From a candidate division WOR-3 bacterium (GTDB lineage: Bacteria; SDB-A): a stretch of 64,000 nt of DNA. Position numbers and translations under genes: made by a program. The stretch spans positions 10,849-74,848 of the forward strand of contig JAFGON010000040.1 of the NCBI GenBank assembly GCA_016926475.1. Reading direction: 5' to 3'. Shown in pieces: positions 15,075-21,510 of this stretch (within the stretch, counting starts at the first letter, position 1; each line of letters begins with the position of its first letter). A model generated the notes under the pieces. That model was given only the letters and a program-made list of their open reading frames with translations. It searched no databases and was not told the origin of the DNA.

Positions 15075-16487
15075 ATGTCTTCAGAATATTACGTTTCCAA
15101 TAAGTCTATTTCGGTCAGGCTTTTAGGCGAAAGCGACGCCCAGCTTTTTCAGCCTGACACAGGCTCTAAAATATATCTCAATCAGACCGGGCTTTTCATT
15201 TGGAAGTTACTCGACGGCGGTAATTCAAGGGTTGAAATTGTCAACGCTGTTCAGAATGAATTTGACGCTCCCGACAGCAAGGAACTCGACTCCGATATAG
15301 GGCAATTTCTGAGCGGTCTCGAAGAAAAGGGGTATGCCCATTCACGGAATTTTCTTAGAAGAGAACCCAGAAGCACCTATTTCATTCATGAAAATGAAGC
15401 GCCCAGGTCAATTGACATATCTGTTACGAAAAATTGCAACCTGAACTGCAAGTATTGTTTTTATCGCGAAGAGATGAAAAATAGGGAAGACCTGCCCCTT
15501 TCGGAATGGGAGAAGTTTTTGGAGGAGCTTAAAAGCCTTGCGGTCGAAGAAGTCGTGCTGAGTGGTGGAGAGGTTTTTTGCAGAAAAGATCTCTGGGATT
15601 TCATCGATTTGATCGTGGAAAGCAACCTCAGGTATTCGTTTCTTTCAAACGGAACGTTGTTCGACGATTCTGTTCTCAGCGAGCTCGAGAAGGATGGGCG
15701 TAAAAAGAGGCTATCGAGCATACAAATCTCAATAGACGGTTCAAAGGCGGAAGTTCACGATATGTCGAGAGGGAAAGGAAGTTTTGAAAAGGCTGTAAGG
15801 GGTCTGAAAAACGCCATGGGTGCCGGATTAAACGTCACGGTGAGGTTGACGGTAAACAGACACAACCTCGGCGACCTCGAAGAAGCCGCGAAATTCCTGC
15901 TGGTCGATATCGGACTTCCATCTTTCAGCACCAACGACGCGATTCCTCTCGGGGCGGCGTGCTGGAACAAAGACACGATAACACTCGATCCTTTAATGCA
16001 GTTTGAGGCGATGAAAACCCTCGGAAAACTTCAAAAACAATATGACAACAGAATCACGGCGATGGCAGGGCCTTTGGCGAAATGGCATCTTTACCGAAAG
16101 ATGGAGAGGATGAAAAGGCAAGGCGAAAAACCAGAGCCCTGGATGGGATATTTGACGGGATGCGGATGTCCTTTCAGCAAATTGGCAGTTCACCACGACG
16201 GTGTATTTATTCCATGCAATATGCTCTCGAAAATTGAACTTGGCCAGATGAACAAAGATTCTCTGAAAGATGTTTGGATCAACAGCCCTATTTTGAAGAG
16301 GATGAGGGAGAGGCGAAGAGTGCCTATGAAAGAAGTCCCGGGCTGTGAAAACTGCGAGTACAATTTGTATTGCAACGGCAGCTGTCCAGCTTTGGCCGGA
16401 GTGACTGCTGAAAATTTTATCCTTCCAAACCTCTTCGACTGTTACAAGAAATTCAAAGAAGATACAGGCCGGAATCTTGACGAATAA
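15075..16487 (+). CDS. Radical SAM/SPASM peptide maturase with N-terminal PqqD-like RiPP recognition element
   Basis: The N-terminal ~90 aa (KIYLNQTGLFIWKLLDGGNSRVEIVNAVQNEFD...FLSGLEEKGY) match the PqqD/RRE fold signature. CNLNCKYCF is the CxxxCxxC radical-SAM cluster. The C-terminus has a Cys-rich SPASM-type region (GCGCPFSK...IPCNML...CENCEYNLYCNGSCPA). Confidence 0.85.
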   Translation: MSSEYYVSNKSISVRLLGESDAQLFQPDTGSKIYLNQTGLFIWKLLDGGNSRVEIVNAVQNEFDAPDSKELDSDIGQFLSGLEEKGYAHSRNFLRREPRSTYFIHENEAPRSIDISVTKNCNLNCKYCFYREEMKNREDLPLSEWEKFLEELKSLAVEEVVLSGGEVFCRKDLWDFIDLIVESNLRYSFLSNGTLFDDSVLSELEKDGRKKRLSSIQISIDGSKAEVHDMSRGKGSFEKAVRGLKNAMGAGLNVTVRLTVNRHNLGDLEEAAKFLLVDIGLPSFSTNDAIPLGAACWNKDTITLDPLMQFEAMKTLGKLQKQYDNRITAMAGPLAKWHLYRKMERMKRQGEKPEPWMGYLTGCGCPFSKLAVHHDGVFIPCNMLSKIELGQMNKDSLKDVWINSPILKRMRERRRVPMKEVPGCENCEYNLYCNGSCPALAGVTAENFILPNLFDCYKKFKEDTGRNLDE

Positions 16488-17535
16488 GTTTTACCCTCTT
16501 AAAACGATCTACATGTATCTGATGGGCAGCTGCAACCTAAAATGCAGACATTGCTGGATTGACCCGGATTTTGTGGATGTCCCGCAGAAATACTTGACTT
16601 GGACTGAAATTAAGAGGATCTACCAGGAAGCAAAAATAATAGGCCTGTCTTCAGTTAAATTGACCGGGGGGGAACCTTTCCTTCATCCTGAAATTCTCCA
16701 GATAATAACTGGAATAAAAGAACTCGGACTTGGTTTGACCATAGAGACAAACGGTACTTTGTTGGATGATGAGAGAGTGCATGCGCTGAAAAAACACGCG
16801 AATTTCGTCGCCATTTCCATAGACGGCGCTGAACCCAACAGTCATGAAGACCTTAGGGGTGTCGAAGGCTCTTTTGACGCAGTCTTAAAAGGCGCGGGAC
16901 TGCTAAAAAAAGAAGGCTTGGGGTTTCAAGTCATATTTTCTCTCTACAGGAAAAATCTCCGGGATCTTTTTTTGATGCCCAGCTTTGTCGAAGGAATAGG
17001 AGGCGCAAGCCTCAAGGTAAATCCGATCAACGTCGTAGCGAGATCTGAAAAAATGGAAAGAGACGGAGAACTGTTTTCTGTAGAAGAAATTTTAGAAATA
17101 AAAAATGATTTTGACCGTATATCAAAAAAATCAAAACTGACGATAACATTCGATGTGCCTGCCGCTTTTCATAGTCTTGAGCACATTTCGAAACAGGGAT
17201 TTGGAACGTGCGGAATCCTGACTATTTTGGGGATACTCAGCGACGGAACGGCGAGTATCTGCGGCATAGGATCGGTTAAAAAAGAACTCGATTTCGGAAA
17301 TTGCCTCGACCGAGGAATTGAGAATATATGGCGTGAAAATGACACTCTGAATATGCTCAGAGAGAATATACCTCATAACCTGCAGGGTGTATGCATGAGG
17401 TGTGTCCACAAGCATTACTGCCTGGGCAAGTGCGTAGCGGAAACATACGCCAGAACGGGCAGTTTTTTGTCAGGTTATTATTTCTGCCAGATAGCTCAGG
17501 AAAAAGGACTTTTCCCCCCTACGCGACTTTTATGA
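16477..17535 (+). CDS. Second radical SAM/SPASM-domain protein (no RRE)
   Basis: GSCNLKCRHCWI is a CxxxCxxC motif. GGEPFLHPE is a glycine-rich SAM motif. C-terminal Cys clusters (GTCGIL...ICGIG, CMRCVHKHYCLGKCVA). Overlaps the upstream gene by 11 nt and the downstream gene by ATGA. Confidence 0.8.
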   Translation: MTNKFYPLKTIYMYLMGSCNLKCRHCWIDPDFVDVPQKYLTWTEIKRIYQEAKIIGLSSVKLTGGEPFLHPEILQIITGIKELGLGLTIETNGTLLDDERVHALKKHANFVAISIDGAEPNSHEDLRGVEGSFDAVLKGAGLLKKEGLGFQVIFSLYRKNLRDLFLMPSFVEGIGGASLKVNPINVVARSEKMERDGELFSVEEILEIKNDFDRISKKSKLTITFDVPAAFHSLEHISKQGFGTCGILTILGILSDGTASICGIGSVKKELDFGNCLDRGIENIWRENDTLNMLRENIPHNLQGVCMRCVHKHYCLGKCVAETYARTGSFLSGYYFCQIAQEKGLFPPTRLL

Positions 17536-18404
17536 AAGACAAGCCATCATCGGATATAGCGGTTTTTGTGCTATCGGGAGAAAGTATGAAACCGCTTATG
17601 AAGACCGGCGATGTTTTCATGGCTTCAAAAGTTTTTCCGGAGAAATTGAAATACGGCGACATAGTCGTCTTTGAAAAAAATGGAAAACTCGTATCTCACT
17701 CAATCATCAAAGTGAAAAGAGAAGGAACGGATATCAAAGTCTTGACAAAGGGTTTGAACAGAAACGAGGACGACGGATGGACAGATGGGGATGTTTTGAA
17801 ATTCGAAGTCGAAGCCCTGAAAAAGGGGAAACATTTTTTGGGTTTAAACCGGACAAAAAAGACATTTTATTGTGCGTTGGCGCCGTTGAGGAAAAAAATC
17901 CGCAACTGTCTTTTTGAGTTTTCTGTTAAAATTTCGCCACTGTTTCGATTTATGATGAAAAAAGGGCTGATAAAGGTAAAAAAAATTATGTCTCAAGACG
18001 AAGAATTAGTGGTATTATGGGACAGAAGTGTTTTGAAAAGAAGGGGCGATAATAGAGAAATACACCCCTTTTTTAGAAAAGGCGCGGTGAAAGAAGAGGA
18101 TTTAATGGAGTCTGCAGAAAAACAAGGCAAGACAGGTAACGTTTATATGAACCCTGATCTGGTTTTCAGAATTGAGGGAGACGAGGGTCTTGTATATAAT
18201 GTGAAAACAGGTGATTTTAGAATAATAAACGAGACGGGTTGCGCGATTTTAAAACTCGCCAACGGAAACTTCGACAAGAAAGGAATAATAGACCTTATAC
18301 TTGAAGAATACGAATCAAAGGACCAAGAAGAGATGATGGTAAAAGAGGTGGGTGAATTTATTGACGATTTATCAAAACGAGATATAATAAGATTGATTGA
18401 TTGA
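17532..18404 (+). CDS. Soluble SipW/S26-like (clan SF) serine peptidase fused to a C-terminal PqqD-like RRE domain
   Basis: SGESMKPLMKTGDVF is SPase box B with a Ser nucleophile. YGDIVVF, VSHSIIKV and TKGLNRNEDDG parallel the SipW-type HRV/TKGDNN boxes. There is no N-terminal TM anchor. The C-terminal LVYNVKTGDFRIINETGCAILKLANGNFDKKGIIDLILEEYE is PqqD-like. Confidence 0.65.
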   Translation: MKDKPSSDIAVFVLSGESMKPLMKTGDVFMASKVFPEKLKYGDIVVFEKNGKLVSHSIIKVKREGTDIKVLTKGLNRNEDDGWTDGDVLKFEVEALKKGKHFLGLNRTKKTFYCALAPLRKKIRNCLFEFSVKISPLFRFMMKKGLIKVKKIMSQDEELVVLWDRSVLKRRGDNREIHPFFRKGAVKEEDLMESAEKQGKTGNVYMNPDLVFRIEGDEGLVYNVKTGDFRIINETGCAILKLANGNFDKKGIIDLILEEYESKDQEEMMVKEVGEFIDDLSKRDIIRLID

Positions 18405-18423: not shown

Positions 18424-18720
18424 ATGAAAAAGAAATACATAAAACCTTCTATTTTAGATTTTAAACCAAGGGTTGCCCAGGGAAATCTTTTTTCGGGAAC
18501 CAACACCAGCAGCCCGGAAGGCGGCTGTACAGCTGGTTCAGCGGCTGATTATTGCAATTATGGACAAATGGCGACCGGTTTTTCTGATTGCGCCAACGGT
18601 TCTGGCGCTATGGACTGCACGCAGGGCGCTTTGGCGAGTGGAAATCTATGCGCCACGGGCACGAACGCGACAGGAGGCGGAGGAGGATTTTGCGCTTCAG
18701 GGTCAAGCCCTCTCGCTTGA
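18424..18720 (+). CDS. Putative RiPP precursor peptide A1 (Cys-rich, Gly/Ser/Ala/Thr-rich core)
   Basis: 98 aa. Strong RBS (tggggg). Leader MKKKYIKPSILDF..LFS..SPEG, then a core with 7 Cys at ~9-13-residue spacing and GGGGGF. It is paralogous to 19750..20040. Confidence 0.6.
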   Translation: MKKKYIKPSILDFKPRVAQGNLFSGTNTSSPEGGCTAGSAADYCNYGQMATGFSDCANGSGAMDCTQGALASGNLCATGTNATGGGGGFCASGSSPLA

Positions 18721-18746: not shown

Positions 18747-19559
18747 TTGAATGAATTAAAGATCAAAATAGGTTCCATATCTCTGAAATTACGGTCAAAA
18801 GAGCGTATCGGCTTTTTTTCTGATTTGTTTGAATACTTTAAGACAAAAGATGAATGTCTATATGACACTGAGATCGTTTTTTGGGATTGTGAAGACATCC
18901 TCGACTGCATAAAGAAGAAAATTTTTTGGGTGAAAGACAACATAAAATCCGCCAGAAATACTATTCACATGATTTCTTCTTTCGGATTTAAGACAATTGT
19001 TGACGAAGACCAGGGCAAGATATTTATTTTTTCCCCCCAGGAATACAAAGCCAAGGCTTTGAGGGTTTCTGTGGGCTTTTTTTGCTGGAAAATGTTTCCC
19101 AAAGACAAATATCTTTTTTTTCATGCCGCGTCCTGTAAGTTCTCAGAAAACAGCTATCTCTTTCCGGCGAACAGCGGCAAAGGCAAGACCACTTTGAGTG
19201 AAAACGCAATAAAATGCGGCGAGGTATTCAACGACGAGTTTTCTCTCGTCGAGATTACCACAGACGGATATGTTCTTCATGGCACACCTTTCGGGCAGGT
19301 GACGAGCGGACCGATTTTGGGTCAACTAAAAAAAATATTCTTTCTCGAAAAAAGCGAAAAAAACGACTTCAAGAGGATTACGCCCGTCGAATCAATGAAA
19401 ATTGCTTGGGAGGACAACCTATACAGAACAGGGATAACCAATTCCGAAGAGAGAAAATTGGTGTTCAACGAAATTTTGGATATTTTCGAAAATATTCCAT
19501 GTTTTGAGATGAATGTGAGAAAAGATTTCAACGATTTTAAACTACTCGAGAATTTATAG
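18747..19559 (+). CDS. HPr kinase C-terminal-domain-like P-loop protein (putative precursor-peptide Ser kinase)
   Basis: FFHAASCKF...ANSGKGKTTLSEN is a P-loop G-x-S-G-x-GK-T/S as in HprK/lasso-peptide kinases. It is ~270 aa and sits between the two precursor genes. Confidence 0.55.
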   Translation: MNELKIKIGSISLKLRSKERIGFFSDLFEYFKTKDECLYDTEIVFWDCEDILDCIKKKIFWVKDNIKSARNTIHMISSFGFKTIVDEDQGKIFIFSPQEYKAKALRVSVGFFCWKMFPKDKYLFFHAASCKFSENSYLFPANSGKGKTTLSENAIKCGEVFNDEFSLVEITTDGYVLHGTPFGQVTSGPILGQLKKIFFLEKSEKNDFKRITPVESMKIAWEDNLYRTGITNSEERKLVFNEILDIFENIPCFEMNVRKDFNDFKLLENL

Positions 19560-19749
19560 ATCCCTTTTCTAAATAAAATGTTAAAATGACAGAAAACATT
19601 GGAATATAGAGCTGTTTTGGTATTTTTGAATCTTTTCTAAAACTCCGATTTTATAAATAGATAATTAGAGATATTTGCAGTGAATTGTTAATAAAAATAT
19701 TACTTGTTAATTTCCAAAAAAATCAATAAAATGTCAAAAAGGCTGTTTT

Positions 19750-20040
19750 ATGGGGAAAAAGAAGTATATTAAACCTCAAATAAGGTGTTTTGAAGCAATC
19801 ACGGCATATTCACAGCTTTTTTCGAATGAATCACCTGAAGGGGTTTGCACCATAGGCACCGTTGCAAACGCCTGTCAGGAAGGGGGAAGTGCGTCCGGAG
19901 GTCCAGGACAGTGCCTTTCCGGCTCGACTGCCAATTTTGACTGCCTCACTGGGAGTTATGCGCAGGGTTCGGTATGCTCCAACGGAGACCACGCGGCAAA
20001 TCAAGGCGGACAATGTAAAGTGGGTATGAGTCCAAAATAA
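19750..20040 (+). CDS. Putative RiPP precursor peptide A2 (paralogue of A1)
   Basis: 96 aa. Leader MGKKKYIKPQI..F....QLFSNESPEG. The core has 7 Cys, 6 of them alignable to A1, and a C-terminal GMSPK. Confidence 0.6.
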   Translation: MGKKKYIKPQIRCFEAITAYSQLFSNESPEGVCTIGTVANACQEGGSASGGPGQCLSGSTANFDCLTGSYAQGSVCSNGDHAANQGGQCKVGMSPK

Positions 20041-20354: not shown

Positions 20355-20855
20355 TTGTATTTTTATCATAGGGGGGATTTTGTTTTGAAGAGTATTATCG
20401 AGAGGAAGATAAAATTGTCTGGTGAAACAGAAGATTTCCAGTGTGAAATCATAGAAATTTTTCCTGATAAAGCAATACTTAAATACACAATTGAAAAGGA
20501 AACCTCAGTGGCTGGTCTCGTGCTGAGCCCGGGTGATGTAACCCGAGCTTATTACAGCGAGAAAGAACCTTATGTACTATACAGGTGGTTTTCCAAAAAA
20601 TCTGTTTTTATGGGGGACTATTTCAACATAGCAGATAGCGTGAAAATTTCAGGTGATTGTGTGAGGTGGAGAGATCTTGAGATAGACCTGCTGTTTCTCC
20701 AAAACGGGACGCACTTAGTTTTGGATGAGGACAAGTTGCCTGAAAATATTTCACTTGAACTCAAAAAGTATATAGACAACGCTGTGGATTTCATCGTAAG
20801 AAACTATGAATCAATCGTAGGGGAATTTGACGGAATTAGACTATTCAGACCTTAA
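20355..20855 (+). CDS. DUF402-like (FomD/YgaC-type) protein
   Basis: WRDLEIDLLFLQNGTHLVLDEDKLPE resembles the DUF402 D-L-x-L-D...DEDEL core. The start is uncertain: there is no ATG, and a TTG at 20385 follows aggggggatttt. Confidence 0.4.
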   Translation: MYFYHRGDFVLKSIIERKIKLSGETEDFQCEIIEIFPDKAILKYTIEKETSVAGLVLSPGDVTRAYYSEKEPYVLYRWFSKKSVFMGDYFNIADSVKISGDCVRWRDLEIDLLFLQNGTHLVLDEDKLPENISLELKKYIDNAVDFIVRNYESIVGEFDGIRLFRP

Positions 20856-21510
20856 AAGGATACAGGAAAGGCTTGTTTCACGGGTCAAGATCAAGCCTTT
20901 GAAAAGCGGAATTAGATATGTCGCAGGTCTTGACTGCGCCGTGACGAAAGACAAAATTGTCGGCGAAGCCGTTCTTATGAGTTATCCCGAACTTCAAATG
21001 GAGGAGGAAAAATTCAGCTTCAGAGAGCTCAGTTTTCCCTATGTCCCGGGTTTTCTCTCGTTCAGAGAAATGCCGGCTCTCATTTCTGCCTACCTCAAAC
21101 TGTCGAGAAAACCAGATATGATTATTGTCGACGGGCAGGGAATTCTTCATCCCCGCGGTATGGGTCTGGCAAGCCATTTGGGTGTAATACTCAACAAACC
21201 TTCAATAGGCTGTGCGAAGAGTCTTTTGTGCGGGGAATATGAAGAACCTTCTTTTAGAAGAGGATCTAAAAGCCCGGTGTTTTTGAATGAAAAGATTATG
21301 GGTTATGCCCTGAGGACGAGAGACGGGGTCAAGCCCGTCATTGTATCTCCCGGACATCTCATTACTCCACTGCAGGCGCAAAAACTTGTCCTAGAAATGT
21401 CTTTTTTCAGGCTTCCGGAACCCGTCAGGCTGGCCGACAAGTATTCAAGGGAGAATAAAAAGTATTCTTCGCAGAATAGTAAGGTTTTGGTCGAAAATAA
21501 TGATTTTTGA
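20827..21510 (+). CDS. nfi: Endonuclease V
   Basis: VAGLDCAV...SFPYVPGFLSFREMPALI...MIIVDGQGILHPRGMGLASHLGVILNKPSIGCAKS are the canonical Nfi motifs. TTG start. Confidence 0.75.
   Translation: MTELDYSDLKRIQERLVSRVKIKPLKSGIRYVAGLDCAVTKDKIVGEAVLMSYPELQMEEEKFSFRELSFPYVPGFLSFREMPALISAYLKLSRKPDMIIVDGQGILHPRGMGLASHLGVILNKPSIGCAKSLLCGEYEEPSFRRGSKSPVFLNEKIMGYALRTRDGVKPVIVSPGHLITPLQAQKLVLEMSFFRLPEPVRLADKYSRENKKYSSQNSKVLVENNDF

Follow-up and report, generated by a model that had tools for sequence, protein, structure and literature searches.

A putative ScmC-family peptide kinase of the PEPCK/HprK fold in a divergent SynChlorMet-type cassette of a candidate division WOR-3 bacterium

The 64,000-nucleotide (nt) stretch of a candidate division WOR-3 bacterium genome analysed here (contig JAFGON010000040.1, positions 10,849 to 74,848; hereafter the window, whose own numbering is used throughout) carries at 18747-19559 a gene for a divergent new member of ScmC, a family that is catalogued in databases but functionally uncharacterised. 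The encoded protein is a compact two-domain member of the phosphoenolpyruvate carboxykinase (PEPCK)/HPr-kinase P-loop superfamily, and we predict, giving even weight for and against, that it is an ATP-dependent kinase which acts, with the assistance of a PqqD domain, on linear leader-tethered precursor peptides. The fold of the protein, its family, the integrity of its motif and the linkage of its gene to those for precursors, PqqD domains and radical S-adenosylmethionine (SAM) enzymes are established.

Identity and fold of the protein

18747-19559, forward strand: ScmC-family (PF27840) protein, PEPCK/HprK-fold P-loop type, putative peptide kinase (profiles, fold model, motif)

The open reading frame (ORF) starts with TTG, encodes 270 amino acids (aa) and carries the sequence ANSGKGKTT at residues 141-149 (nt 19167-19193), being flanked by two small Cys/Gly-rich ORFs (18424-18720, 98 aa; 19750-20040, 96 aa). 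A sequence-only reading that preceded this work had described an HprK-type Walker A protein between two precursor-like ORFs, and both the 270-aa frame and its SGKGKTT segment (residues 143-149) are indeed there. That this is a real gene and not a chance ORF follows from the existence of an identical database protein (hypothetical protein, candidate division WOR-3 bacterium, locus tag JXA84_04030), an orthologue at 46% identity in a syntenic locus, the 6771 matches of the family profile and a confident AlphaFold2 model. The deposited version of the protein is 244 aa long and begins 26 codons after the TTG at 18747. Since the residues omitted from the deposit (18747-18824) are kept in orthologues and form a confident beta-hairpin in the model, we preferred the 270-aa reading, and the deposited gene model is probably too short at its N-terminus.

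PF27840 "ScmC" is the precomputed Pfam label of the identical database protein and of all its close relatives; the Pfam copy searched here, which lacked the PF27840 model, returned no match of the window protein at E<=1. The NCBIfam matches were the following:

HprK-related kinase A (TIGR04352): E 1.3e-4, 21.2 bits
ScmC (TIGR04249): E 2.3e-3, 17.3 bits
HprK-related kinase B (TIGR04355): E 0.12, 11.5 bits

The window protein does not reach the TIGR04249 cut-off (125 bits), the best E-value for this model among 95 relatives being 4.7e-12, much poorer than 125 bits would yield, and it is therefore assigned to a divergent subfamily rather than to the canonical ScmC equivalog. These relatives come from an exhaustive profile search, which retrieved 6771 cluster representatives at E<=1e-3, of which 741 remained at E<=1e-10; 95 of the representatives were aligned and each was scanned against family models. 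TIGR04249 ScmC was matched by 61 of them, HprK_rel_A by 57, HprK_rel_B by 41, PEPCK_ATP by 34 and, weakly, Hpr_kinase_C (PF07475) by 12.

The AlphaFold2 model built from the 95-sequence alignment has a mean predicted local distance difference test score (pLDDT) of 94.4 and a predicted template modelling score (pTM) of 0.91. In structure comparisons the whole protein most resembled a minimal ATP-dependent PEPCK, with 217 residues aligned, and its P-loop domain superposed on the HprK C-terminal domain at 2.4 Å. The nucleotide-binding domain thus has the PEPCK/HprK-like fold and is set clearly apart from other P-loop NTPases; an unrelated P-loop family, named beforehand as the outcome that would speak against the kinase idea, is not what the fold and the ScmC/HprK-related matches revealed. 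A sequence search of the window protein against the PDB gave no match, and with the family profile the only non-generic PDB matches were PEPCKs, the others covering the Walker A segment alone. From its sequence, the protein is predicted to be an ATP-using enzyme and is probably active.

HPr kinase/phosphorylase (HprK/P) has a different N-terminal domain and works in carbon catabolite control, whereas the context here is peptide maturation; the window protein matches neither PF07475 nor TIGR00679. The signature loop of HprK/P is E-I-R-G-L-G, and a counterpart is absent from the window protein as read from its sequence. A true HprK/P identity was rejected on the lack of a profile match and the wrong genomic context. 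ATP-dependent PEPCK (PF01293, likewise without a Pfam match here) is twice the size of ScmC and has long insertions that ScmC lacks, and the context of ScmC points to a peptide and not to a metabolite as substrate.

Catalytic motif and relationship to lasso-peptide kinases

19122-19124, forward strand: codon of His126, invariant in 95 family members; aligns with BsfK His148 and with the HAS-motif His of ATP-dependent PEPCK (HMMER)
19173-19193, forward strand: Walker A, S143-G-K-G-K147-T-T149, read from sequence; G146 and K147 invariant and T149 at least 90% conserved in 95 relatives
19233-19238, forward strand: codons of Asp163-Glu164, equivalent to the metal-binding/catalytic Asp-Asp pair in lasso kinases; D163 at least 90% conserved; residue roles from PMC10368454

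The layout of the superfamily is kept in the window protein, with H126 followed by G144-K-G146-K147-T148 and then, about 16-18 residues on, by the acidic pair D163-E164. Besides the residues listed above, F139 and P181 are at least 90% conserved in the 95-sequence alignment. A close parallel is provided by the kinases of lasso-peptide clusters (PadeK, ThcoK, SyanK, PsmK and BsfK), HPr-kinase homologues that phosphorylate their linear precursors and whose catalytic core is homologous to that of ScmC, the motif H-x14-G/A-x2-G-x-G-K-S/T-x15-16-D-D/E being common to both. In BsfK numbering the motif shared by lasso kinases reads H148-G163-G166-G168-K169-S170-D186-D187, and alanine substitution of H148, G163, K169, S170, D186 or D187 impairs the enzyme (PMC10368454). 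Seven of these eight positions are kept in the window protein, as H126, G144, G146, K147, T148 (for Ser), D163 and E164 (for Asp). The His-to-Lys spacing of 21 residues equals that of BsfK and PadeK, the lasso kinases in which it was counted, and the loop ahead of the acidic pair is one residue shorter than in lasso kinases.

A profile built from the core alignment of the 12 lasso kinases in the BsfK supplement (PMC10368454) matched all 95 ScmC-family sequences (median 32 bits, best 49 bits). None of 950 shuffled controls scored above 6.2 bits, whereas the window protein reached 18.7 bits (E 6.7e-5); in its alignment H126 falls on the lasso His, G146-K147-T148 on G-K-S and D163 on the first of the two Asp. 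Taken with the weak NCBIfam matches to HprK-related kinases A and B and to ScmC, the profile comparison upholds the relatedness to HprK and lasso kinases that the sequence-only reading had put forward. Since seven of the eight lasso-kinase motif positions and the family-invariant residues are kept, the phosphoryl-transfer machinery appears intact.

The same conservation pattern bears on a different role, in which ScmC would be a nucleotide-binding scaffold or chaperone that assembles or gates a complex of PqqD domain, radical SAM enzyme and precursor and makes no covalent change. The strictly conserved features are indeed only the nucleotide-binding ones, the precursors share no conserved acceptor residue, and physical coupling to PqqD is evident from overlapping genes and a fusion protein. 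On the other hand, the His and the Asp-Asp/Glu pair, which are important for the transfer chemistry of lasso kinases, are conserved as well, and the characterised members of the superfamily are all phosphotransferases. A scaffold is, in our judgement, an unlikely role for ScmC.

Precursor peptides and candidate acceptor residues

18424-18720, forward strand: precursor A, 98 aa; leader MKKKYIKPSILDF...; core with six C-x-x-G-x-x-[A/P/V/D] repeats
19750-20040, forward strand: precursor B, 96 aa; leader MGKKKYIKPQIRCF...; core with six C-x-x-G repeats, ending ...QCKVGMSPK

Neither precursor matched a Pfam or NCBIfam model. A profile search found 18 homologues, making 20 precursors with the two of the window, and members of this set adjoin ScmC genes in seven distinct loci (the window and the related loci L001, L006, L007, L014, L016 and L019), in each of which ScmC lies directly 3' of the precursor gene or genes. 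The leaders conform overall to K-x-Y-x-K-P-x-hydrophobic and fall into two clades, one of the type MKKKYIKPxIxxF and the other of the type MTKRTYVKPEWHAMGMPIAEAAC, both containing Y-x-x-P-x-hydrophobic. This motif makes them similar to leaders from lasso clusters with a kinase, MKYIAPKVL and MRYTKPVVL being two of those printed in the BsfK supplement (PMC10368454). In other respects the peptides differ from lasso precursors, being 95-99 aa long, built of Cys-Gly repeats and devoid of a C-terminal Ser.

The cores hold 4-7 repeats with a Cys-to-Cys spacing of 9-15 residues, Gly standing at +3 of 115 of the 116 Cys. Position +6 is occupied by Ala (70 times), Pro (17), Val (13) or Asp (13), and Ser, present at +5 in 35 of the 116 repeats, is the commonest residue there, Ser/Thr being enriched at +4/+5. 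In six aligned precursors the invariant residues are K2, Y5, K7, P8, an E-G pair and the recurring Cys, Gly and Ala of the repeats. The precursors have 12-13 Ser/Thr in their cores and none of these is invariant across the family; therefore, the acceptor residue cannot be named. These C-x-x-G repeat peptides may be the missing substrate type of SynChlorMet-like cassettes.

The conserved Ser-Pro to which the sequence-only reading had drawn attention is present in both window precursors, which end in ...G-x-S-P-x(1-2), but its status as a special site did not survive comparison with the homologues. It would be the acceptor in a special case of the kinase model, namely a lasso-type enzyme acting on the Ser of this motif, and in its favour the G-x-S-P-x(1-2) end is kept in nine precursors of the closest group and in the more distant P0191, while the C-terminal Ser is, according to a review, the target of most characterised lasso kinases. 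The Ser, however, is not the terminal residue but stands 3-4 residues from the end, and the Ser-Pro just fills positions +5/+6 of the final C-x-x-G-x-x-[APVD] repeat, at the first of which the repeats in general have Ser in less than a third of cases. In 7 of the 20 precursors the last repeat has Val, Phe, Gly or Trp in its place (with ends such as CTTGGVAVG, CATGGFAIV, CADGGGFNT and CLGGSWAVQ), and two of these seven, P0189 and the L007 peptide, directly adjoin an ScmC gene. Moreover, BsfK targets core Ser3 and not a C-terminal Ser (PMC10368454), which shows that lasso kinases do not require the terminal one. The Ser-Pro was accordingly rejected as a dedicated acceptor site, being part of the general repeat, and we regard this special case as quite unlikely.

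A SynChlorMet-type cassette around the gene

15075-16487, forward strand: ScmE-like maturase with N-terminal PqqD (leader-binding), radical SAM and SPASM domains (Pfam: PqqD 24-87, Radical_SAM 115-275, SPASM 363-427; TIGR04250 ScmE, 376 bits against a cut-off of 400)
16477-17535, forward strand: ScmF-like radical SAM/SPASM maturase, its start overlapping the end of the ScmE-like gene (TIGR04251 ScmF, 325 bits against a cut-off of 400, full model length; Pfam Radical_SAM and SPASM)
17532-18404, forward strand: signal-peptidase-I-like (S24/S26, SipW/archaeal type) domain with C-terminal PqqD, presumed leader peptidase (TIGR02228 sigpep_I_arch, 58.1 bits against a cut-off of 51.85; PqqD at 267-333 of the long ORF)
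18361-18388, forward strand: promoter-like site TTGACG-16-TATAAT just upstream of precursor A, best in the region (11 of 12 positions; a consensus match only)
19704-19732, forward strand: weaker promoter-like site upstream of precursor B (9 of 12 positions; a consensus match only)

ScmC, a fused PqqD, an ScmE-like and an ScmF-like gene occur together here, as they do in L001, L014 and L019. Because the two radical SAM genes score just under the ScmE and ScmF cut-offs, the locus is best described, at the level of sequence models, as a divergent SynChlorMet (SCM) cassette (ScmC/ScmD/ScmE/ScmF), a system defined by bioinformatics only. Syntrophobacter fumaroxidans, Chlorobium limicola and Methanocella paludicola are the organisms given in its family description. 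The four component types of the named cassette stand in one operon-like block. In contrast to the named cassette, PqqD is not free-standing but forms part of two larger proteins, the ScmE-like maturase and an additional SipW-like peptidase, and the locus has two clear precursor genes of a family without a Pfam or NCBIfam model. The combination of a kinase-like protein with radical SAM enzymes had been thought an unusual pairing; in this family it is the rule, and the cassette that embodies it already has a name.

A PqqD-type leader-binding protein accompanies the kinase both here and in lasso clusters, and in the lasso system the PqqD-type BsfB1 strongly stimulates phosphorylation by BsfK (PMC10368454). 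The window locus, in contrast, has neither a lasso cyclase nor a transglutaminase-type B2 protease, and the partners of ScmC are radical SAM/SPASM enzymes. Ten other genes of the window were also scanned, and none of them matched a dedicated exporter, a nucleotidyltransferase, a lasso cyclase or a B2 protease; the only transporter-type matches were a MatE-family protein and an SNF-family symporter, both distant from the locus.

The long ORF of the peptidase, counted from its first ATG at 17391, overlaps the ScmF-like gene by 145 nt. Its orthologues, 288 aa long, start from the corresponding Met and overlap ScmF by 4 nt; the likely start is therefore 17532, an ATG that shares nucleotides with the ScmF stop codon, and not 17391. 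A SipW-like peptidase fused to PqqD is an unusual candidate for a leader peptidase.

Gene context in related loci

The gene context rests on about a dozen distinct loci; scans with a three-sequence alignment yielded 2 loci from genomes and 1 short locus from metagenomes. Those orthologous to the window are L001 (= L004), L014/L015 and L019/L020, which have AddA/AddB upstream and DUF402 plus endonuclease V downstream. The order in all three is ScmE, ScmF, peptidase-PqqD, precursor A, precursor B, ScmC, and only in the window, among the four orthologous loci, does ScmC lie between the precursors. Of the earlier argument from position, then, the adjacency to precursors has stood, being conserved in every related locus examined for it, and the placement between them has proved peculiar to the window.

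Beyond the orthologues, L006 (31% identity) has peptidase-PqqD, a 77-aa precursor and ScmC, and in L007 and L016-L018 the order is PqqD, precursor, ScmC, NTP_transf_5. Distant ScmC relatives in three loci lie beside PqqD, radical SAM (with SPASM in two of the three) and NTP_transf_5, with ABC transporters in two. PqqD, mostly together with radical SAM/SPASM, accompanies the distant relatives in all other informative loci but one (L002), and in some of them the PqqD and ScmC genes overlap. In the 353-aa protein P0102, which came from the exhaustive search, a PqqD domain (residues 37-78) and an ScmC-like domain are naturally fused, which, by the Rosetta-stone argument from sequence, indicates that ScmC works with a leader-binding domain.

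Two loci broaden the range of pathways. In L005 (2070-4630; JAHJCI010000189.1, a Candidatus Omnitrophota metagenome-assembled genome) a lasso-B2-like Transglut_core3 gene, PqqD, an ScmC relative and a radical SAM/SPASM gene stand in a row, and this hybrid cluster suggests that modules have been exchanged between lasso and radical-SAM peptide pathways. In L002 (189-5226) the ScmC relative, 28% identical, has as neighbours YcaO, a gene of the nitroreductase family, QueC and a glycosyltransferase of family 2, and the 5.3-kb contig has no PqqD and no radical SAM gene; it may represent a third kind of ScmC-using peptide pathway.

NTP_transf_5 (PF14907) is found directly after or near ScmC in L007, L008, L010, L011 and L016-L018. 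This frequent neighbour in the wider family recalls the pseudomycoidin lasso peptide, whose kinase and nucleotidyltransferase pair is mirrored by ScmC and NTP_transf_5 in other clades than that of the window; in the PsmK/PsmN system, as reviewed, sugars are added onto the phosphate. It is conceivable that phosphoryl transfer by ScmC is a transient activation, be it Ser/Thr phosphorylation followed by elimination, a pseudomycoidin-like derivatisation of the phosphate, or a PEPCK-like phosphorylation of a carboxylate or enolate. The position of NTP_transf_5 directly after ScmC in several clades and the precedent of PsmK/PsmN favour such a role, as do the whole-protein likeness to PEPCK over 217 residues and the enrichment of Ser/Thr at +4/+5 of the repeats. 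Nevertheless, the window locus and its orthologues lack a nucleotidyltransferase, a lyase or any other partner gene for it, the cross-linking is already explained by the two radical SAM/SPASM enzymes, and the nearest families by sequence are HprK-related peptide kinases and not PEPCK. We hold transient activation to be improbable.

The cassette is embedded in a conserved chromosomal neighbourhood. Window positions 8963-29690 are syntenic with L001, L014 and L019 over AddA/AddB, the cassette, DUF402, endonuclease V, a 1122-aa adenylate/guanylate cyclase-AAA-TPR protein, a metallophosphoesterase and a TonB-dependent receptor, and no exporter is found in this block. Since the block is syntenic and without exporter and ScmC is only 46% identical between genomes, the cassette appears to have been vertically inherited for long rather than recently acquired as an antibiotic cluster.

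Synteny of the whole region, from AddAB to DUF402, endonuclease V and the cyclase, also makes positional conservation among close relatives weak evidence when taken alone, and to that extent it would agree with a metabolic or regulatory kinase unrelated to peptides, such as a true HprK/P or a small PEPCK-like enzyme. The linkage of ScmC to precursors, PqqD and radical SAM genes holds, however, in unrelated genomic backgrounds at 25-30% identity. Moreover, the protein gave no Pfam match to Hpr_kinase_C, the HprK N-terminal domain or PEPCK_ATP, and its 270 aa amount to half a PEPCK. A role outside peptide maturation is, therefore, very hard to credit.

Proposed mechanism and significance

For ScmC we infer the use of ATP, a peptide substrate, a Ser/Thr acceptor and the following order of steps. 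The precursor leader (K-K-Y-I-K-P-x-hydrophobic, containing the lasso-like Y-x-x-P-x-hydrophobic) would first be held by a PqqD domain, a domain that in this locus forms part of both the ScmE-like maturase and the peptidase. ScmC, with ATP and Mg2+, would then phosphorylate hydroxyl side chains along the still linear, repeat-rich core, with Lys147 and Thr148 binding phosphates and metal and Asp163/Glu164, placed by His126, serving as metal ligand and base. Phosphorylation would precede or accompany the events in which the two radical SAM/SPASM enzymes introduce thioether-type cross-links and the SipW-like peptidase removes the leader.

Several observations weigh against this proposal. The profile scores of the window protein itself are weak (17-21 bits against cut-offs of 125-200), and its best whole-protein structural match, PEPCK, phosphorylates an enolate and not a protein. 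Gly163 of the BsfK motif is Ala141 here, and no Ser/Thr is invariant among the six aligned precursors. Our literature search found no publication on the SynChlorMet cassette and no functional study of ScmC. Finally, an NTP_transf_5 nucleotidyltransferase goes with ScmC in many relatives but is absent from the window locus, and the end product may consequently differ between ScmC clades.

It is tempting to extend the peptide-kinase proposal to the family as a whole, although we attach only a low probability to this broader picture. ScmC proteins would contribute the kinase to a portable module, together with PqqD as leader-binder and often a nucleotidyltransferase, and this module would have passed between lasso and radical-SAM pathways. 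In the window cassette, phosphorylation of Ser/Thr at +4/+5 of the repeats would prime or gate the cross-linking, and the outcome would be a phosphorylated peptide with several thioether bridges, of an undescribed class. Encoded among housekeeping genes, vertically inherited and without an exporter, it might be a physiological factor, for instance a cofactor or a metal binder, and not an antibiotic.

The family is large and named in databases, and the window locus offers an unusually clean test system for it, being a compact block of six genes with two precursor genes, each with a promoter-like site, an intact ScmC motif and the candidate partners side by side. If ScmC phosphorylates the precursors, the range of HprK-type peptide kinases would widen from lasso to radical-SAM peptides, the substrate and the chemistry still missing from the SynChlorMet cassette would be supplied, and the role of the C-x-x-G-x-x-A repeat peptides would be defined. 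If it does not, a new non-kinase use of the PEPCK/HprK fold would be indicated.

Additional observations

The DUF402 gene (20355-20855) and the endonuclease V gene (20827-21510) overlap by 29 nt and follow the cassette in all four orthologous loci, their conservation being confined to a region that is syntenic as a whole. The DUF402 family includes nucleoside di/triphosphatases.

Locus L004 (CAYNIW010000023.1), labelled 'uncultured Desulfuromonadaceae bacterium', carries the same protein as L001, in which the genes from AddA/AddB to the TonB-dependent receptor stand in the order of the WOR-3 window; either the taxonomic label of L004 or its binning may be wrong.

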